From: Myxococcota bacterium | Lineage (GTDB): Bacteria; Myxococcota; JACRCW01 | NCBI GenBank assembly: GCA_040752415.1 | Contig: JBFMGU010000272.1 | Location: 1-14,061 of the forward strand | DNA length: 14,061 bases | Reading direction: 5' to 3' | Shown: positions 3,149 to 14,059 of the stretch, piece by piece | How positions within the stretch are numbered: the first letter of the stretch is position 1 | How the letters are laid out: every line of letters starts with the position of its first letter | Notes under the pieces: generated by a model | Databases searched by the model: none | Told to the model about the DNA's origin: nothing | Seen by the model: only the letters and a program-made list of their open reading frames with translations | Position numbers and translations under genes: made by a program

Positions 3149-3718
3149 ATGACGTCCGCCCGAATTGCCTGCGCATTCTTCAGCCTTGCGCTGCTGGCCT
3201 GTCAGAAGCAGCCCGCCAGCCTCGTCATCGAGCCCAACAAGTTCCTGCCGCTGGAGCGCAAGGGGAAGACCGTGCAGCTCAAGGCGCAGACCAAGGATGA
3301 CCGCAACATCTTCATCGCCACCGTGCAGCCGGAGTGGAGCAGCAGTGATCCTTCCGTCGCCACCGTGGGTCCCGACGGGCTGGTCACCGCCCAGGGCACC
3401 GGCAAGACCGTCATCACCGGGAAGACGCAGGGCGTGGAGGGCTCGGTGGAGGTGGACGTGCGCATCGTGGGTGCCGTGGAGGTGGAGCCCAAGGAGCCGC
3501 AGAAGCTGAAGCTGGGCAAGACCATGAAGTTCAAGGCGGTGGTGAAGGATGACCGCGGCAACGTCATGCCCAACGAGAAGATCCTCTGGCGCGCCGCGGG
3601 CTACGCCATTGACGTGGACCAGGACGGCCTGGTGACCGCGCAGGCGCTGGGTGAGAGCACGCTGGTGGCCCAAGCCAAGGACAAAGAGACCCGCGTTCCG
3701 TTCGTGGTGGTGGATTGA
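3149..3718 (+). CDS. Lipoprotein with two Ig-like (Big_2-type) domains
   Basis: GGAG then ATG 3149. Lipobox LALLAC. Two related repeats: WSSSDPSVATVGPDGLVTAQGTGKTVITG and WRAAGYAIDVDQDGLVTAQALGESTLVA. Confidence 0.85.
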   Translation: MTSARIACAFFSLALLACQKQPASLVIEPNKFLPLERKGKTVQLKAQTKDDRNIFIATVQPEWSSSDPSVATVGPDGLVTAQGTGKTVITGKTQGVEGSVEVDVRIVGAVEVEPKEPQKLKLGKTMKFKAVVKDDRGNVMPNEKILWRAAGYAIDVDQDGLVTAQALGESTLVAQAKDKETRVPFVVVD

Positions 3719-3722
3719 CGTC

Positions 3723-4523
3723 GTGACGTGGCTGCTGGACGGACTGGCGGAGCTGGGCGCGGAGACCCGCGCGTTCCTCACCACCGCCGGACGCGTCCTG
3801 CGCTTCCTCCTGCTGGTGCTCCGTCACGGCGTCTGGCCCGTGCCGCCGCTGCGCACGCTCACCACGCAGGCATTCGCCCTGGTCCAGCAGTGTCTGGTGC
3901 CGGTGACGCTGGTGGTGGTGCCCATGGGCGCGCTCATCAGCCTCCAGGGCGCCTCGATGATCCAGAACTTCGGCGTGGAGCGCCTGCTGGCGCCGCTGGT
4001 GGCCCTCACCGTCGTGCGGGAGCTGGCCCCGGGCTTTGCCGCGCTGATGGTGGCCATGCAGGCCGGTACCAGCGTGGCGGCGGAGATTGCCGTCATGCGT
4101 GTGCGCGAGGAGCTGGACGCCTACGAGATCATGAGCGTGGACCCGCTGCGTCACGTGGTGGCACCGCGACTCATCTCCGGCGCGCTCATCACACCGATGA
4201 TCACCGTCATCAGCATGGGGCTTTCCGTCGCGGGCGCGTGGGCGGTGGCGGTGGGCGCACGTGGGTTTGCCAGCCGCGCTTTCCTCGACGGGTGCCTCTC
4301 CGCCATCACCCGCTATGACCTGGCCGCCTCCCTGCTGAAGAGCGCGGTGTTCGGCGTGTTGCTCTCCGCCATGAGCTGCTTCGAGGGCTACACGGCGGAG
4401 AAAAGCGCCGCGGGCGTGGGTCGGGCCGCCAACCGCAGCGTGGTGGGCGCCATCCTGGCCATCCTGCTGGCCAACTACGTGCTCAACTCCGTGCTGTTCG
4501 CGGGCGTGGTGCTGCGCACATGA
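3723..4523 (+). CDS. mlaE: MlaE/YrbE-family ABC transporter permease (first copy)
   Basis: GTG 3723 lies 4 nt after the upstream stop. Motifs VVRELAPGFAALM, GTSVAAEIAVMRVREELDAYEIMSVDPLRHVVAPRL, KSAVFG and GVGRAANRSVV. Confidence 0.88.
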   Translation: MTWLLDGLAELGAETRAFLTTAGRVLRFLLLVLRHGVWPVPPLRTLTTQAFALVQQCLVPVTLVVVPMGALISLQGASMIQNFGVERLLAPLVALTVVRELAPGFAALMVAMQAGTSVAAEIAVMRVREELDAYEIMSVDPLRHVVAPRLISGALITPMITVISMGLSVAGAWAVAVGARGFASRAFLDGCLSAITRYDLAASLLKSAVFGVLLSAMSCFEGYTAEKSAAGVGRAANRSVVGAILAILLANYVLNSVLFAGVVLRT

Positions 4524-5263
4524 CGTCGTTCCTGGCGGCGGTGGGCCGGTACACCCGCTTCACGTTGGCCGCCGTCTGGGCCCTTCCGCGACTCGACCGC
4601 GCGGAGATGATGCACCAGGCGTACCTGATGGGGGTGGGCTCCATCCTGGTCATCCTCGCGGTGTGCGCGTTTGCGGGGGCCATGCTGGCGGTGCAGGGAT
4701 TTGCGTCGCTGAAGGCGTTTGGCACGCCGGAGCTGCTGGGCATGTTCATCTCGCTGGCGGGGGTGCGGGAGGTGTTTCCGCTCGTCGGGGCGGGGTGCGC
4801 GGGGGCCAAGCTGGGAAGCGCGGTGGCGGCGGAGGTTGCCACGCTGCGCATTGGCCAGCAGATCGACGCGTTGGAGGTGATGTCCGTGGATCCCATGCGC
4901 TACCTGGTGGCGCCGCGCATGGTGGCGTGTTTGGTGGTGACGCCGCTTCTCGTCGGGGCGGGCCTGCTGGCGGGACTGGGCGCGGCCTACCTCACCGCGA
5001 CGCTGCAGCTGGGTGTGGACCCCGGCAGCTTCATCACGCGCGCGCTGGAGAACATCTCCGTCACGGACCTGCTGGCCGCGCTGGTGAAGGGCCTGGCCTT
5101 TGGCGCGCTCACCGGCAGCATGGCGTGCTGGCAGGGCTTCGACGCCGCGGGGGGGCCGGCTTCCGTCGGGACGGCGGCGAACATGGCCGTGGTGCGCAGC
5201 ATGATGGTGGGCGCGGTGGTGAACCTGTTCATCAGCCAGGCGTTCTACGGGGGGCTGCTGTGA
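4520..5263 (+). CDS. mlaE: MlaE/YrbE-family ABC transporter permease (second copy)
   Basis: ATGA overlap with the previous gene. Motifs VREVFP, GSAVAAEVATLRIGQQIDALEVMSVDPMRYLVAPRM, KGLAFG and GGPASVGTAANMAVV. Confidence 0.9.
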   Translation: MTSFLAAVGRYTRFTLAAVWALPRLDRAEMMHQAYLMGVGSILVILAVCAFAGAMLAVQGFASLKAFGTPELLGMFISLAGVREVFPLVGAGCAGAKLGSAVAAEVATLRIGQQIDALEVMSVDPMRYLVAPRMVACLVVTPLLVGAGLLAGLGAAYLTATLQLGVDPGSFITRALENISVTDLLAALVKGLAFGALTGSMACWQGFDAAGGPASVGTAANMAVVRSMMVGAVVNLFISQAFYGGLL

Positions 5264-6018
5264 ACGAGCCCATTGTCGAGCTGGTGGAGGTGTCCAAGCG
5301 CTTTGGCTCGCTCACCGTGCTGGACAAGGTCAGCATGAAACTGCCGCGCGGTGAGACCACGGTGATCGTGGGTCCGTCCGGGACGGGGAAGAGCACGCTC
5401 ATCAAGCTGCTGGTGGGCCTGCTCCGCCCCGACGAGGGCCACGTGCTGGTGGGCGGCATGGACGTCACCACCATGGGCCGCACCGAGCTGATGCGCATCC
5501 GCCAGCGCTTCGGGATGCTCTTCCAGGACGGCGCGCTGTTCCATTCCATGACGGTGGCGCAGAACGTGGCGTTCCCGTTGCGCCATCACACGTCGCTGAC
5601 GCGGGAGGAGCAGTACGTGCGCGCGGAGGCGGCGCTGGCGGAGGTGGGCCTGCCGGGACTGGGCGAGCGCAGGCCGGACCAGCTCAGCGGTGGACAGCGC
5701 AAGCGCGTGGGGTTGGCGCGCGCGTTGGTGCTGCAACCGGAGATCGTGCTTTTCGACGAGCCCACCAGCGGCCTGGACCCCGTCACCAGCGCGGCCATCG
5801 ACGAGCTCATCGTCAACACGCGGCAGCGGCTGGGGCTGACCTTCATCGTGATCACGCATGACGTGCAGAGCTGCGCGCGCATCGCCGACAACATCGGCAT
5901 GTTGTGGGAGGGACAGCTGCGCGCGTTTGGCCCGCGTGACGACGTGCTGAAGTCGCAGGACCCGGTGGTGCGGCAGTTCTTCGACCGCCAGAGCGCCGGC
6001 CCCATCAAGGTGGTGTGA
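5260..6018 (+). CDS. mlaF: MlaF/Mkl-family ABC transporter ATP-binding protein
   Basis: GTGA overlap. Walker A GPSGTGKS, FGMLFQDGALF Q-loop, signature LSGGQRKRVGLARAL, Walker B LFDEPTSGLDP, H-loop ITHD, C-terminal DPVVRQF. Confidence 0.92.
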   Translation: MNEPIVELVEVSKRFGSLTVLDKVSMKLPRGETTVIVGPSGTGKSTLIKLLVGLLRPDEGHVLVGGMDVTTMGRTELMRIRQRFGMLFQDGALFHSMTVAQNVAFPLRHHTSLTREEQYVRAEAALAEVGLPGLGERRPDQLSGGQRKRVGLARALVLQPEIVLFDEPTSGLDPVTSAAIDELIVNTRQRLGLTFIVITHDVQSCARIADNIGMLWEGQLRAFGPRDDVLKSQDPVVRQFFDRQSAGPIKVV

Positions 6019-6035
6019 AGGTCGCGTCCGACGGA

Positions 6036-6041
6036 TATCAT
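6036..6041 (+). promoter_or_regulatory. Putative sigma-70 -10 box for a leaderless TA transcript
   Basis: TATCAT (TANNNT) ends 6 nt before ATG 6048, and there is no Shine-Dalgarno between them. Confidence 0.45.
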
Positions 6042-6047
6042 GCGCGC

Positions 6048-6449
6048 ATGGATCCCGAGCTGCGGCACCAGTTGACCACGTTCTTCGCGGCGCGCCCGTG
6101 GGTGCGGCTGGCACTGGTGTTCGGTTCCCAGGCGCGTGGTACGGCGCGGGGCGACTCCGACGTGGACGTGGCCGTGCGCGGTCGGGACCTGGACACGGTG
6201 GCCTTGGCGCTGGAGCTGGGCGCGTTGCTGGGCAGACAAGCGGACGTCGTCGACCTGGACCAGGCCGGCTACCCGCTGCTGAAGGCCATCACTCGCGAGG
6301 GCGTGCTGGTCTACCAGTCCCGCCCCGGTGAAGAGGCGCGGTGGAGGAGCCAGGCGTGGACCACGCTGGAGACGGAACGCCCGTGGTTTGAACGGATGCG
6401 GGACGCGTACCTCTCGCGCCTTGCGGAAAGTGGCCGCTCCCGTGGTTGA
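6048..6449 (+). CDS. Minimal nucleotidyltransferase (MntA-like antitoxin, type VII TA)
   Basis: FGSQARGTARGDSDVDVAV fits GS-x10-DxD, followed by ADVVDL and ITREGVLVY. The gene overlaps a downstream HEPN gene. Confidence 0.88.
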   Translation: MDPELRHQLTTFFAARPWVRLALVFGSQARGTARGDSDVDVAVRGRDLDTVALALELGALLGRQADVVDLDQAGYPLLKAITREGVLVYQSRPGEEARWRSQAWTTLETERPWFERMRDAYLSRLAESGRSRG

Positions 6450-6876
6450 CGCCGACGTCATCACGCTCAAGTTGGGGGAATTGGCCCGACGCATCGCGCG
6501 CGTGGACGAGCACTACCTCCCTGCCGCGCCCGCGTTCCCCGCGAACCAGGACAGCCAGGAGATCATTGCCTTCAACCTGATGCTGTCAGTCCAGGTCTGT
6601 GCAGACATCGCCAGCCACATCATCTCCGACGAGGGTTGGCCCCCGGCGGCAACGTTGGCCGAGGGATTCAAGCGGCTGGCGGAACATGGCGTCATCACGG
6701 AAGCGCTCGCGCAGACGCTCAGCCAGGCGGTGGGATTGAGGAACGTGGTGGCCCACGGTTACGCGCGGATCAACCTGCAGCATCTCCACGCGGCCGCAGC
6801 ACGAGGTGTGGAGGACCTGCGGGAGTACACGCGACAGGTGGCCCAGTGGGTTTCAGCCCGGACGAGCGGTTCCTGA
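6442..6876 (+). CDS. HEPN/DUF86 (HepT-like) RNase toxin
   Basis: GTG 6442 overlaps the antitoxin end. RNVVAHGY fits R-x4-H-x-Y. Also VQVCADIASHII and FKRLAEHGVI. Confidence 0.88.
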   Translation: MVDADVITLKLGELARRIARVDEHYLPAAPAFPANQDSQEIIAFNLMLSVQVCADIASHIISDEGWPPAATLAEGFKRLAEHGVITEALAQTLSQAVGLRNVVAHGYARINLQHLHAAAARGVEDLREYTRQVAQWVSARTSGS

Positions 6877-9463: not shown

Positions 9464-10126
9464 GTGACGGATGTCCGCTCCCAATCAGCCAGCGCCTCGG
9501 CCGCCGTCGCCTCCCCTTCCGCGGCGGAGGCCAAGCGTCGCAAGGAGCGCGAGGAGGACTGGGCCCTGGTCCAGCGCGCCCAGAAGGGCGAGTACGAAGC
9601 GTTCGAGGAGCTGGTCTCCCGCCACGGCGCCAAGAGCTACGCGCTGGCCCTGGGCATGCTCCGCAACCCGCAGGACGCCGAGGAGGTGGTGCAGGACAGC
9701 TTCCTCAACGCGTTCCAGAAGCTCAGCAGCTTCCGCGGGGATAGCGCCTTCACCTCCTGGCTGTACCGCATCACCGCCAACAATGCGCTGATGCGCCTGC
9801 GCAAGCAGAAGCGGGAGAGCCTCAACGTCATCGAGGACATGCTGCCCACCTTCCGCGAGGACGGCGTGCACGCGCACATCCCCGGCGGCTGGGCCCGCAG
9901 CGCGGATGACCTGGTGGCGGACAAGCAGCTCTCCAAGCGCCTGGAAGAAGGCCTGGCCATGCTGCCGGCGCAGTACCGCGTGGTGCTGCTGATGCGGGAG
10001 GTGGACGGCCTCTCCAACGAGGAGATTGCCGAGGTGATGGGTCTCTCCATCCCCGCGGTCAAGTCCAGGCTCCACCGCGCCCGCCTGGCGCTGCGTGAGC
10101 ACCTGGACAAGGAACACCAGAAGTGA
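9464..10126 (+). CDS. ECF-type RNA polymerase sigma-70 factor
   Basis: GAGGAG RBS then GTG 9464. Region 2: AFEELV...DAEEVVQDSFLNAFQKLSSFRGDSAFTSWLYRITAN. Region 4: LPAQYRVVLLMREVDGLSNEEIAEVMGLSIPAVKSRLHRAR. Confidence 0.93.
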   Translation: MTDVRSQSASASAAVASPSAAEAKRRKEREEDWALVQRAQKGEYEAFEELVSRHGAKSYALALGMLRNPQDAEEVVQDSFLNAFQKLSSFRGDSAFTSWLYRITANNALMRLRKQKRESLNVIEDMLPTFREDGVHAHIPGGWARSADDLVADKQLSKRLEEGLAMLPAQYRVVLLMREVDGLSNEEIAEVMGLSIPAVKSRLHRARLALREHLDKEHQK

Positions 10127-10144
10127 GGCGCCCGCGCCCGAGTT

Positions 10145-10170
10145 GAAACCTCGCGCGTGGGCAAGCATCT
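10145..10170 (+). promoter_or_regulatory. Candidate ECF-type promoter upstream of the anti-sigma gene
   Basis: GAAACC-N15-CATCT, resembling the AAC (-35) / CGTC-like (-10) pattern of many ECF promoters. Confidence 0.3.
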
Positions 10171-10257
10171 TTTGTGGGCAATGTGAGCCGATAAGGGCAA
10201 ACCAGGGTGGGTCCGAGGAAGGCCCGCAGCCTGGGCTGGACGGGGGCGGTAGGACGC

Positions 10258-10500
10258 ATGAAGACGACGTGTCAGGAAGCGGCGGCGGTTCTCAGCGATT
10301 ACGTGGACGGCAACCTCCCGCCGGAGGAGGCGGCGCTGATGAAGTCGCACCTGGATGACTGCCCGCCGTGCGCGTCGTTCCTCAAGAGCTTCAAGGTGGC
10401 CACGGATGCCACGCGCCTCATGCTGCTCAAGCAGATCCCGGGGGACTTCCAGAACCGGCTCAAGTCCTTCCTCAAGGCCCGCTGCGGCGGCGGCCACTGA
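10258..10500 (+). CDS. Small soluble zinc-binding anti-sigma factor (zf-HC2/ZAS)
   Basis: AGGA RBS then ATG 10258. 80 aa. TCQE...LSDYVDGNL...HLDDCPPC (H-x3-C-x2-C). No hydrophobic transmembrane segment. Lies directly downstream of the ECF sigma. Confidence 0.9.
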   Translation: MKTTCQEAAAVLSDYVDGNLPPEEAALMKSHLDDCPPCASFLKSFKVATDATRLMLLKQIPGDFQNRLKSFLKARCGGGH

Positions 10501-10523
10501 TCCCGTCCCACGTCTTCCACCCA

Positions 10524-10563
10524 CGCGCGGTTTTCCCCGGGGCGGTTTGTTGAAACCCGCGCG
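10524..10563. repeat. Imperfect palindrome downstream of the anti-sigma gene (terminator or operator candidate)
   Basis: CGCGCGGTTTTC (10524-10535) pairs at 11 of 12 positions with GAAACCCGCGCG (10552-10563), with a 16-nt loop. Confidence 0.5.
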
Positions 10564-10584
10564 CGCGGCATTACGCTCTGACCA

Positions 10585-10609
10585 TGAACCGCGGGCGCAC
10601 GCAGCGTCT
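10585..10609 (+). promoter_or_regulatory. Candidate ECF-type promoter upstream of the Cys-rich lipoprotein
   Basis: TGAACC-N14-CGTCT ends 23 nt before ATG 10633. Confidence 0.35.
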
Positions 10610-10632
10610 GCGCGTTTTCCTCGGAGGCATCC

Positions 10633-11379
10633 ATGCGCTCGTCCCTGTTGATGTCCTGCGTGATGCCCGGGCTGTTGGCGGGTTGCCTCACCGGCTCGGA
10701 CGAGGGCCTCAACAACGGGGAGCGCGGTGAGATCTCCATGGCCATGCCCGGCCTGCCGGTGGAGCACCAGCCCTTCGAGATCACCATCTTCGTCCAGCGG
10801 CAGAGCGCCATCTGCGGCCGCGGCCAGGTGTGCGTGGAGGATGAACCCATTGTGGGCATGGCCGCCGGCTGCGAGGACGAGAGCATCTGCGTGGTGGCGC
10901 AGCAGGACCCGGTGGAGGAGGACCGACGCTGTCGCGTCTCCGTCGACGCGCACCAAGCCGGCGAGACGCGCCTGCTGGTGGAGGTGGAGACAGCCAGCGG
11001 GGTGATCCGTCGTGATGTGTTCCCCATCCGCGTGACCAGCCCCACCAGCATGGAGGTGACCTGCGCGGCGTGTGACCAGGGCCTGGCGCCGGGGCAGGAG
11101 GCGGAGGCGCAATGTCGGCTCTACAACCGCGCGCTCAGCCCGGACCCGCTGCAGGGCGCCTGCGACGCGGTGCCCATGGGCCTGAGCGTGGAGGTGGAAG
11201 GCAACCTGGGAATGATCGCGCCCGCCGACGCGCAGGCCCAGGGTCCGCGTTTCTCCGACGAGGCACCGGCGGGCGCGCGCGCGTTTGGCAACGTGTTCAC
11301 GGTCCGCAAGAAGCTCCCGCAGGCCGCGGAGGTGCGTTTCTCCGCCGGTGAGGTGGAGCACCGCATCACGGCGCACTGA
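10633..11379 (+). CDS. Cys-rich lipoprotein of unknown function
   Basis: GGAGG RBS. Lipobox LLAGC. 11 cysteines in 248 aa. Beta-rich appearance. It fills the gap between recognised genes in the same orientation. Confidence 0.75.
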   Translation: MRSSLLMSCVMPGLLAGCLTGSDEGLNNGERGEISMAMPGLPVEHQPFEITIFVQRQSAICGRGQVCVEDEPIVGMAAGCEDESICVVAQQDPVEEDRRCRVSVDAHQAGETRLLVEVETASGVIRRDVFPIRVTSPTSMEVTCAACDQGLAPGQEAEAQCRLYNRALSPDPLQGACDAVPMGLSVEVEGNLGMIAPADAQAQGPRFSDEAPAGARAFGNVFTVRKKLPQAAEVRFSAGEVEHRITAH

Positions 11380-11386
11380 GGTGCGG

Positions 11387-12085
11387 ATGGCGCTCTTTGG
11401 CATCAGCGACCTGCATCTCTCCCACCGTTCCAACAAGCCCATGGACGTGTTTGGCCCCAACTGGGTGGGCCACACGGAGAAGATGGCGCGCGCCTGGGAC
11501 GCCCTGGTCCGTCCCGACGACGTGGTGCTGGTCCCCGGCGACATCAGCTGGGCGCTGAAGCTGGAGGAGGCCGACCTGGACCTCCAGTGGCTGGGCGCGC
11601 GTCCGGGGACGAAGATCCTGTGTCGCGGGAACCATGATTACTGGTGGCAGGCCATTGGTCGCGTGCGCGCGGCGCTGCCGCCGTCCTGCAAGGCGCTGCA
11701 GAACGACGCCGTGGACCTGGGCGCGTACGTGGTCTGCGGCACGCGGTTGTGGGCCGCGCCCGGGCAGCTGGACTTCACCGAGGACGACCGGCGCATCTAC
11801 GAGCGCGAGATTGGTCGTCTGAAGATGAGCCTGGAGGCGGGGAAGAAGCTGGCGGCGGGACGGCCGCTGGTGGTCTCGGTGCACTACCCGCCCTTCGCCG
11901 CCAACGGCAGCCACACGGACTTCAGCCGCCTCATCTGCGAGTCCGGCGCGCGGCTCTGCGTCTACGGCCACCTGCACGGAGCGCGCGCGCATCGCTCCGC
12001 CGTGGAGGGCGTGCGGGAGGGCGTGGAGTTCCATCTCATTGCTTGTGACAAGCTGGACTTTGTGCCTAAAGCGCTGTGGCCATGA
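11387..12085 (+). CDS. Calcineurin-like metallophosphoesterase (DR1119/COG1768-like)
   Basis: GAGGTG RBS then ATG 11387. Motifs SDLHLS..KPMDVFG, PGDISWA, RGNHDYWW, HYPP and YGHLHG. Confidence 0.9.
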   Translation: MALFGISDLHLSHRSNKPMDVFGPNWVGHTEKMARAWDALVRPDDVVLVPGDISWALKLEEADLDLQWLGARPGTKILCRGNHDYWWQAIGRVRAALPPSCKALQNDAVDLGAYVVCGTRLWAAPGQLDFTEDDRRIYEREIGRLKMSLEAGKKLAAGRPLVVSVHYPPFAANGSHTDFSRLICESGARLCVYGHLHGARAHRSAVEGVREGVEFHLIACDKLDFVPKALWP

Positions 12086-12996
12086 TGACCACACCTCGGC
12101 AGATTCTCCCGCTCACCCTGTTGTGCACGCTGTGGCTGACCGCCGCCCCGGCGTGGGGCCAGGAGCAGCCCACCGCGCTCCCGTCGGGGGAAGCCCCGGC
12201 CGCCCAGCCTGCCGAGCCGCCCCCGCCCGTGGCGCAACCCACGCCTCCGCCCCAGGCGCAGCCCGCTCCCGCGCCCACGCCCGGTCCCGCGCCGACGGAG
12301 TTGCCACCCGCCTCGCCGAGCGCGGGGGTTGGCGCGCTGGAGATTCACAGCGACGTGCCCGGCGCGGACGTGCTGGTGGACGGTCAGCCCGCCGGGAAGA
12401 CGCCAGTCCGCGTGGACAACCTCACCGCCGGGCCGCACCGCGTGCAGGTCACGCGCGAGGGTGGGGCGCCGCTGATTCGTGAGGTCACCGTGCAGGACGG
12501 GCTCACGGTGCGGATGGACGTGAACGTGGGCTCGGGTCCCAACCGGCAGCCCACCGGCACGCTGGGCAACGCCGCGCAGCCGCCCCCGCCTCCGCCGGCC
12601 AAGAAGAGCAGCGTGCTGCCGGGTGGTGAGTTCTTCTCCACGTTCGTGAGTCAGCCCTGGGCGTGGATTGCCGGTGCGTTTGCGCTGGGCGCCGCGCTGG
12701 TGGCCGCCATCCTGTGGAGCTCCACGCCGGACAACCTGCCGCTGGGCATCAAGATCCCCGGCAACGTGACGGTGTCCGCCGAGCAGTGGCGCATCCTGCA
12801 GTTCACCACGGTGGGCATTGCCATCGTGGCCATCGTCGTCACCATTGGGTTGTTCATCTGGCCCAGCCTGCCCTTCGCCAAGTTCCTCTCGCTCCCCGAC
12901 CTGAGCAAGATGATGAACAAGAAGGACGAGAAACCGGCGCAGCCGGAGCAGCAGCAGTCGCCCGGGACGACGTCACCAGCCCCCAGCGCGGGCTGA
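12082..12996 (+). CDS. PEGA-domain membrane protein with a signal peptide, Pro-rich linkers and two C-terminal TM helices
   Basis: ATGA overlap. Signal peptide ending AWG. PEGA-like segment GALEIHSDVPGADVLVDGQPAGKTPVRVDNLTAGPHRVQVTREG. Two hydrophobic segments (WAWIAGAFALGAALVAAILW and VGIAIVAIVVTIGLFIW). Confidence 0.85.
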   Translation: MMTTPRQILPLTLLCTLWLTAAPAWGQEQPTALPSGEAPAAQPAEPPPPVAQPTPPPQAQPAPAPTPGPAPTELPPASPSAGVGALEIHSDVPGADVLVDGQPAGKTPVRVDNLTAGPHRVQVTREGGAPLIREVTVQDGLTVRMDVNVGSGPNRQPTGTLGNAAQPPPPPPAKKSSVLPGGEFFSTFVSQPWAWIAGAFALGAALVAAILWSSTPDNLPLGIKIPGNVTVSAEQWRILQFTTVGIAIVAIVVTIGLFIWPSLPFAKFLSLPDLSKMMNKKDEKPAQPEQQQSPGTTSPAPSAG

Positions 12997-13001
12997 GCTT
13001 A

Positions 13002-13029
13002 CCGCGGTTCCCACTCGGGTTGACCGCGG
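13002..13029 (+). terminator. GC-rich hairpin just after the PEGA gene stop
   Basis: CCGCGGT (13002-13008) pairs with ACCGCGG (13023-13029) around an inner CCC-ACTC-GGG. No U-tract follows. Confidence 0.3.
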
Positions 13030-13033
13030 AGAG

Positions 13034-13188
13034 GATGGCCCTTGGCCGCGGAATGGCAGACAGGAATGGCTGCGCCACGGAATTGAGCCATTGATTTCAT
13101 GATCCCTGGGGGCATTGGTTTTCGAAGCGAGGCCAATGGACCGTGGCGCAGCCATTCCTGTCTGCGATTCCGCGGCCCAAGGGCCATC
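13034..13188. repeat. Long near-perfect inverted repeat (47/48-bp arms, 60-nt spacer)
   Basis: 13034-13080 versus the reverse complement of 13141-13188 shows one mismatch and one 1-nt indel. The inner 25 bp are perfect. Confidence 0.93.
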
Positions 13189-13264
13189 ACTTCGCAGGTG
13201 TCAGGCTCACTCGCCGCTACGGGGCAAACCTCACCGGGAACCGTTGTCACGGCATTTCCAGGAA

Positions 13265-13738
13265 TCAGCCGCCGTCGGCGGGACGCGTGTGCGGTCCGTA
13301 GGGCGGGCAGCCGCGCTCCGGCATGTCCGTGCCCGCACGACCCGGGATGGGCTCCAGGTCCGCTTCTCCCTGGTTGGGGAAGAGCTGGATGTGCTCACTG
13401 CGCGACTCGCCCTTCTCCAGCACCATGGTCTCGGTGCAGCCGCGCGCCACGATCAGCTCGCCCTGGCAGCTGTCCGGGTCCTCGCACGCGGTGACGTCGA
13501 TGAAGAAGCGCGTGTCCGGCGGCACTTCCGTCTGCAGCTTGAATTGCGACTGCTCACTGAGCTTGATGGGACCGTAGACGTACGGGGTGTCGCCGTTGGT
13601 CTTGCGCACCACGATCATCAACGTCTCCAGCGGCGGCACCGTGGGCTCCTTGTCCAGGTCCAAGGAGACACTGGCCGCGGGCTGACACCCGGCGCCCAGC
13701 AGCACACCCAGCAGAAGCGCACGTTGCTGCATCATCAC
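13265..13738 (-). CDS. Hypothetical lipoprotein
   Basis: Signal peptide/lipobox QQRALLLGVLLGAGC, a beta-rich mature part and further cysteines (CEDPDSC, RGC, RGCPP). It is closely spaced with the upstream minus-strand gene. The exact start among GTG/ATG/ATG is uncertain. Confidence 0.75.
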   Translation of the reverse strand: MMMQQRALLLGVLLGAGCQPAASVSLDLDKEPTVPPLETLMIVVRKTNGDTPYVYGPIKLSEQSQFKLQTEVPPDTRFFIDVTACEDPDSCQGELIVARGCTETMVLEKGESRSEHIQLFPNQGEADLEPIPGRAGTDMPERGCPPYGPHTRPADGG

Positions 13739-13744
13739 GCCCCA

Positions 13745-14059
13745 TCAATTGCGCAGGTTGCGCGCATCCACAGAGATGTCCGTCCCGTTGGGATTGGGCG
13801 GGTTCATGAAGAAGTACACCGCCGTCCCCACGCCGCCCGCCGTGGCCCCGCCCACCGCCGCCACGACGATGATCACCACCGGCACCACCAACGCCACCGC
13901 CACCAGCGGCACCGCGCGCCCCACCGCGTTGCCACCGCCGCCACCCTCGGTGGGCTCGTCGGGGGAAGGGCCTGGTCGGGCCTCCGCGCTGTTCCCGCCC
14001 GGTGATGACGACGTTGAAGCCACTGGCGCCGGGTCCGCCCCGCCCTTCCCGCCCGGGAA
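13745..14059 (-). CDS. Partial (5'-truncated) protein: C-terminal Pro/Gly linker and hydrophobic membrane anchor
   Basis: The frame is open to the window edge (FPGGKGGADPAPVASTSSS...). Long hydrophobic Gly/Ala stretch VPLVAVALVVPVVIIVVAAVGGATAGGVGTAVYFF. The stop lies 6 nt from the next gene. Confidence 0.7.
   Translation of the reverse strand, partial: FPGGKGGADPAPVASTSSSPGGNSAEARPGPSPDEPTEGGGGGNAVGRAVPLVAVALVVPVVIIVVAAVGGATAGGVGTAVYFFMNPPNPNGTDISVDARNLRN

Follow-up and report, generated by a model that had tools for sequence, protein, structure and literature searches.

Two genes converge on a tail-to-tail intergenic gap near the right-hand end of the window, by which we mean the whole 14,061-nt stretch of DNA that was analyzed. 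The gap is 268 nt long (positions 12997 to 13264) and has a GC content of 0.62. To its left, on the + strand, is a gene for a secreted or membrane protein with a PEGA domain (12076 to 12996, stop codon at 12994-12996, GC3 0.90; Pfam E value 3.8e-14). Nine homologues align at the C-terminus of this protein; its best other relatives are only 48-50% identical to it and come from metagenomes. The start of the PEGA gene is overlapped by a metallophosphoesterase gene (11285-12085), and because of this overlap the two genes probably constitute one operon. To the right of the gap, on the - strand, is a convergent gene (13265 to 13738, GC3 0.89) encoding a protein of 157 aa that belongs to no Pfam family; we refer to the product as lipoprotein-like, a label of our own rather than the output of a prediction tool.

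Genes on the contig also include those for an FHA-sigma54 activator, an ECF sigma factor, MlaE/ABC transporter components and PEGA proteins. The region 3651-6018 resembles an Mla-like lipid-transport module with a duplicated permease, in which two MlaE-type permease genes lie in tandem (3651-4523 and 4520-5263) ahead of a gene for an ABC ATPase. A Polbeta/MNT-type nucleotidyltransferase gene (6015-6449, Pfam E value 5.6e-14) adjoins a gene for a HepT-like RNase (within 6328-6876, E value 5.1e-21), and these genes (6015-6876) have the makeup of an MNT-HepT toxin-antitoxin-type pair. No match to a transposase, RAYT, integrase or reverse transcriptase family was returned by a Pfam scan of the 26 distinct ORFs of the window, in agreement with a preliminary description of this DNA, which had listed neither transposase nor reverse transcriptase.

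The gap is non-coding. GC3 in four reading frames of the palindromic element described below is 0.58-0.72, compared with 0.87-0.91 in four genes. A search of 5.8 billion proteins brought up no relative of the longest frame that crosses the element (83 aa, - strand). A match at an E value of 6e-5 among 1.84 billion representatives was discarded as a chance match of 20-24 residues to the repeat unit of a 2753-aa protein. There are no tandem repeats in the gap, the single array detected (12934-12952) falling inside the PEGA gene, and a scan for tRNA and tmRNA genes was negative.

The hairpin core and its folding

An ungapped inverted-repeat finder located a core palindrome of about 170 bp within the gap, at 13026-13195. 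It consists of a left arm (13026 to 13080) and a right arm (13141 to 13195), each of 55 nt, separated by an asymmetric apical region of 60 nt (13081 to 13140) with two small stems on the + strand. Four inverted repeats were found in the 14-kb window, and complementarity above 80% was seen only in the hairpin arms. In an alignment of the near-perfect parts of the arms (13034-13080 with 13141-13188), 46 of 48 columns are complementary; a G/G mismatch (13055/13166) and an additional C within 13176-13178 account for the other two, a divergence of about 4%. This pairing, with its one mismatch and one indel, had been noted in the preliminary description and was confirmed, as was the outward extension of the stem by GCGGAG (13026-13031) and CTTCGC (13190-13195), which pair on the + strand with one G-U. 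The doubled 8-mer reported for the left arm was also recovered: GGAATGGC occurs there at 13050 and 13063 on the + strand (13050-13057, 13063-13070) and once more at 13151-13158 on the - strand. All three occurrences in the window fall inside the arms, compared with 0.63 expected; a count of three is reached by 8 of 200 shuffles. The 8-mer is absent from L001, the related locus discussed below. GC content is 0.61 in the core and 0.48 in the apex, against 0.70 for the contig.

Each arm also contains an outward-facing TGGCGC-N5-TTCC, at 13144-13158 on the + strand and 13063-13077 on the - strand. This motif resembles the -24/-12 arrangement of a sigma-54 promoter, minus the GC of the -12 element. 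The promoter reading was set aside; were such motifs active, they would direct antisense transcripts into both flanking genes.

The core hairpin is clearly real and well beyond chance. Folded as RNA, the 268 nt of the gap reach -162.8 kcal/mol on the + strand (shuffle mean -105.3, z -10.7) and -154.5 kcal/mol on the - strand (z -10.5), while 242 nt folded as DNA reach -88.2 kcal/mol (z -11.8); in each of these analyses none of 200 shuffles folded as well. The core alone gives -126.7 kcal/mol on the + strand and -114.7 kcal/mol on the - strand, and G-U pairs number 9 on the + strand versus 4 on the - strand, of 97. None of the 46 pairs of the long stem is G-U, and the four G-U pairs of the + strand core fold are all found elsewhere. 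Since the two strands fold equally well and the long stem is free of G-U pairs, the symmetry appears to be a property of the DNA rather than of an RNA shaped by long selection. The evidence for a strand preference at the RNA level is weak; the extra + strand G-U pairs lie outside the long stem.

These results bear on the possibility that the element is transcribed from a promoter of its own, either as an independent gene for a structured RNA or as a supply of double-stranded RNA. The fold is very stable and the + strand is somewhat favored by its energy and G-U count. However, the symmetry is at the DNA level, no promoter-like site was found at the element, and there is no conserved homologue in which covariation could be seen. 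Nor was an Rfam family identified: the whole window gave no match to Rfam 15 at the element, and the best match of the element searched alone was a generic plant miRNA-precursor hairpin at 27.1 bits, far from the gathering score of 142. An RNA gene thus seems very unlikely, and the structured ncRNA put forward as an option in the preliminary description gains no support from the Rfam and promoter searches or from the symmetric long stem without G-U pairs.

Neither the apex nor the single arms fold above chance on their own. The apical 60 nt folded alone do no better than shuffles (z +0.24 and +0.04), and single arms form no hairpin above chance (z -0.12 to -1.36, with 15 to 91 of 200 shuffles as good). 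The sequences of an inner pair proposed earlier, CCATTG/CAATGG, are indeed present, but the minimum-energy fold prefers a 10-bp stem between 13112-13121 and 13128-13137, which includes CAUUGG (13113-13118) and CCAAUG (13132-13137). The apex holds two similar direct copies of a motif of about 11 nt, CATTGATTTC (13089-13098) and CATTGGTTTTC (13113-13123); either copy can pair with CCAATG at 13132-13137, giving alternative apical folds.

Outside the core, an 8-bp pair formed by CGGTTCCC (13005 to 13012) and GGGAACCG (13236 to 13243) had been proposed as a short stem closing around the long hairpin. The two 8-mers exist, but in an unanchored local alignment 170 of 2000 shuffles do as well as the outer flanks, and so do 68 of 356 places of the same geometry elsewhere in the window, which is no more than chance. 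With the 8-mer removed, the flanks do not stand out from shuffles, since between 411 and 1777 of 3000 attain the score under the different scorings. A global alignment anchored at the 8-mer is reached by 0 to 46 of 3000 shuffles and by 2 of 574 real-sequence controls, the anchor having been picked post hoc. The closing stem was consequently rejected as a chance pairing, and the argument from its architecture in the preliminary description falls with it. We have taken 13026-13195 as the feature and left the outer pair, an unproven part, out of it.

The corresponding junction in a relative

A genome scan with an alignment of the nine PEGA homologues gave 61 pattern matches, of which one was confirmed. 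This locus, L001, labelled as a Deltaproteobacteria MAG, was the sole relative locus returned. It has a four-gene order in common with the window. The metallophosphoesterases are 75% identical over 232 aa and the PEGA proteins 46% identical; the orthologue of the 157-aa protein (L001 5365-6162) is 51% identical to it over 136 aa (E value 2e-40), with the alignment extending to the last residues. Beyond the 157-aa gene, the C-terminus of the fourth gene product matches that of L001 in 11 of 17 residues.

The convergent stop codons are 12 nt apart in L001 (5353-5364) versus 268 nt in the window, and there is no hairpin at the L001 junction, where none of the eight inverted repeats of that locus is located. 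As the L001 junction is only 12 nt long, the hairpin lies within what appears to be lineage-specific extra DNA. By this comparison, about 256 nt of the window are without an L001 counterpart and are placed cleanly between intact gene ends, although L001 is a single distant relative (46-75% protein identity) and the 256-nt difference is unpolarized, loss in the L001 lineage being possible. When the gap was aligned with L001, homology picked up again only within the downstream gene; the left side of this alignment is misaligned, and it is therefore illustrative only. The arms are about 4% apart, far below the divergence of the two lineages, which would make the palindrome younger than the split between the window and L001. 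This suggests a young palindrome.

An internal control is provided by the other convergent junction of the window, where the ends of the HepT-like gene (6876) and the FHA-sigma54 activator gene (6890) are separated by 13 hairpin-free nucleotides. Hairpins of this length are thus not a routine feature of convergent junctions in the host genome.

L001 has a repeat structure of a different kind at 10925-11130, between ORFs at 9512-10837 (- strand) and 11028-14054 (+ strand). In this mirrored array, about five tandem 21-nt units are followed by a central palindrome and then by about five more tandem 21-nt units; the units have an inverted 8-nt core in common (CCGGTAAC / GTTACCGG).

The synteny with L001 is also relevant to the authenticity of the sequence. 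The window appears to be an entire metagenome contig, and the element is situated 0.8 kb from its 3' end, where a fold-back or a chimeric join in a metagenome assembly might be suspected, and a fold-back artefact had been named beforehand as an outcome that would undo the observation. A fold-back would duplicate the flanking gene, however, and not create new sequence; the flanks of the element are not mirror images, and the gene order across it is the same in the independent genome of L001. The mismatch and the indel between the arms imply that both exist as separate sequences. In view of the synteny and the arm differences, we find an assembly artefact highly improbable.

A second explanation on which the comparison bears is a two-way terminator or insulator that evolved locally, with no mobile origin, and that ends or stabilizes both mRNAs and stops read-through into the opposing gene. 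The hairpin is positioned exactly between two convergent stop codons, it folds equally well from either direction of transcription, and no other terminator-like site was detected in the gap. In this it resembles a bidirectional intrinsic terminator, a GC-rich hairpin common to two convergent genes and usable from both strands. Unlike such a terminator, the element has no U- or A-tracts: no T-run follows the stem on either strand, and the terminator scan found no site at the element. At about 55 bp, its stem exceeds several-fold the roughly 5-20 bp of the scan's model. The preliminary description had remarked on both the missing U-tract and a length far beyond the needs of an intrinsic terminator, and rightly so. 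The homologous L001 junction is without the element, and both that junction and the other convergent junction of the window manage with 12-13 hairpin-free nucleotides. A stem selected as RNA would be expected to gather G-U pairs, of which the long stem has none. Finally, a near-perfect duplex of about 50 bp would be expected to be a good substrate for RNase III rather than a protective cap, which argues against shaping for the latter role. A terminator of local origin is, on this evidence, a somewhat unlikely explanation.

Searches for further copies and known families

Neither a second copy of the element nor any fragment of it exceeding 12 nt turned up in the 14-kb window or in 15 kb of L001. 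Searches of 72,556 plasmid records and 50,697 phage records by blastn at a distant setting gave no match. When the 83-aa frame was searched against 185,579 species-representative genomes, there were 129 pattern matches, none of which was confirmed; the source genome itself was not recovered either, and since the scan needed an exact 8-residue peptide, it was sensitive to near-identical copies only, and a diverged family would escape it. A literature search for miniature hairpin elements in myxobacteria turned up no paper; a repetitive sequence of M. xanthus is said to have been the subject of a paper in 1991.

The boundaries of the element gave no sign of a target-site duplication: at 35 paired boundaries, direct repeats flanking the element never exceeded 2 nt. 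The strongest inverted repeat is internal to the element, and the outermost pairing is at chance level. To the left of the palindromic start, TTAC at 12999-13002 resembles the target of IS608, but a match of 4 nt is at chance level and this reading was dropped. An invertible promoter switch was likewise rejected: no promoter-like site was detected, the scanned ORFs include no recombinase, and the arms are only 60 bp apart.

That only one copy is visible, with no relatives in the genome, plasmid and phage searches, is what would be expected if the palindrome were a recent, neutral and purely local product, for example an inverted duplication formed by template switching during replication in a spacer that was already enlarged, and without function or mobility. 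Arms nearly identical as DNA, together with an asymmetric apex and asymmetric outer flanks, fit this explanation too. It leaves unexplained, however, the extra 256 nt or so of spacer relative to L001; no source sequence for the arms was found elsewhere in the window, and the repeated GGAATGGC gives the arms an organized appearance, albeit weakly (the 8 of 200 shuffles cited above). We consider a neutral local palindrome unlikely.

The searches leave still less room for a relic of a retron msr/msd region or for a single-strand recombination site like the attC of integrons. The shape of a long imperfect hairpin is all that recommends either, and a retron msd-like relic had been suggested on first inspection. 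In a retron the reverse transcriptase gene is adjacent to msr-msd, downstream and on the same strand, whereas here the two neighbors converging on the element are both conserved, syntenic, non-RT genes. Among the 26 ORFs neither a reverse transcriptase nor an integrase was detected, and there was no Rfam match. Such an origin appears extremely improbable.

Likely origin of the palindrome

On the basis of the sequence comparisons, the feature is a lineage-specific, non-coding DNA palindrome, with a core of about 170 bp that lies within roughly 256 bp of additional spacer. In bacteria, insertions of palindromes between genes are common. The reading that we favor, with a probability of roughly 40%, is that this palindrome may be a copy of a hairpin-forming miniature insertion element of an unrecorded kind, similar in behavior to MITEs and REPINs, which would serve only incidentally as a two-way 3' hairpin. 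An insertion is favored by the presence of the element here and its absence from L001, the statistical significance of the palindrome, the symmetry of its strands, its low GC content and the hairpin-free control junction. Against an insertion we have counted the single visible copy, the want of a target duplication and of hairpins within the arms, and the absence of an enzyme among the 26 ORFs. The MITE- or REP-like nature proposed in the preliminary description is strengthened in one respect, by the hairpin-free 12-nt junction of L001, and weakened in the first three of those just listed.

We infer mobility, an enzyme acting in trans and any effect on transcripts by analogy with REPINs and with the effects of REPs at convergent genes. 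On this analogy, the hairpin element would be moved by an enzyme whose gene lies elsewhere in the genome. The element may have been kept because an insertion of 0.2 kb into a tail-to-tail gap, one of few such places, breaks nothing. Transcripts arriving at the element from either gene would form a duplex of about 55 bp, which could pause RNA polymerase, block 3' exonucleases or suffer cutting by RNase III. The element would in that event act as an incidental two-way barrier at the 3' ends of both convergent mRNAs.

A close architectural parallel is with REPINs, which PMC3116915 describes as extragenic inverted doublets whose two halves, set apart by a spacer, fold into long hairpins. As in that account, two inverted arms with a spacer would here combine, as single-stranded DNA or in mRNA, into a single long hairpin; the location is extragenic and non-coding, and the REPIN enzyme, the RAYT transposase, acts in trans (PMC3116915). 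The dimensions differ: the arms here are 47-55 nt long with a 60-nt spacer and a core of about 170 bp, as against the GI doublet, for which the same paper gives 71 bp between two invariant 16-mers (PMC3116915). Moreover, a REP unit makes a hairpin of its own, in contrast to the arms of this element, which form none above chance. The window has no RAYT among its 26 ORFs, and the likeness drawn here is one of architecture. REPs and REPINs also occur in many copies and are over-represented in extragenic space, whereas one copy is present in this 14-kb window and none in the 15 kb of L001.

A similar comparison may be made with the palindromic MITEs and intergenic repeat units of other bacteria. 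The Correia, ERIC/IRU and RUP elements are short non-coding units, palindromic over much of their length, which genomes tolerate in 3' intergenic gaps; where these units are transcribed, the ends of the transcripts are affected. The present element is likewise small, non-coding and largely palindromic, and it occupies a 3' intergenic gap. It differs from them in that it has no target-site duplication, its termini are undefined, its strongest inverted repeat is internal, only a single copy is visible and there is no parent insertion sequence. MITEs have terminal inverted repeats; in this element the inverted repeat is strong, but the outermost 8-bp pair is at chance level. Where MITEs are recognized from filled and empty sites, the 12-nt junction of L001 may be regarded as an "empty" site in one distant relative.

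As for possible effects on transcripts, a recent preprint (bioRxiv 10.64898/2026.03.23.713779) treats the REPs of E. coli as 3'UTR regulators that act as partial terminators and mRNA stabilizers, and links REPs between convergent genes with 3'-end effects on both. The present element is comparable to the REPs described there in being a hairpin-forming extragenic palindrome at 3' ends (bioRxiv 10.64898/2026.03.23.713779). REPs are short, however, and exist in hundreds of copies, whereas this element is long and has one known copy. By its sequence the element is an orphan; it may work like a REPIN or a palindromic MITE, although two of their defining features, hairpins within the arms and a target duplication, were looked for and not found.

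A more far-reaching reading would make this element the first example seen of a family of mobile long hairpins, so far unrecorded, from an uncultured lineage of high GC content that is deltaproteobacterial or Myxococcota-like. The hairpin would then be moved in single-stranded form, and either the enzyme responsible or its mode of action would be one that has yet to be linked with substrates of this kind. The lack of a target duplication, the lack of REP-type hairpins within the arms and the four GGAATGGC-type sites in mirrored pairs are the basis for this suggestion, which we regard as speculative and rather unlikely.

Should the palindrome prove to be single-copy, it would be a local curiosity of little wider consequence. 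As a member of a mobile family, on the other hand, it would open a first way into the miniature hairpin elements of an uncultured lineage that has been poorly sampled, and would represent a natural case in which one insertion rewires the 3' ends of two convergent genes.
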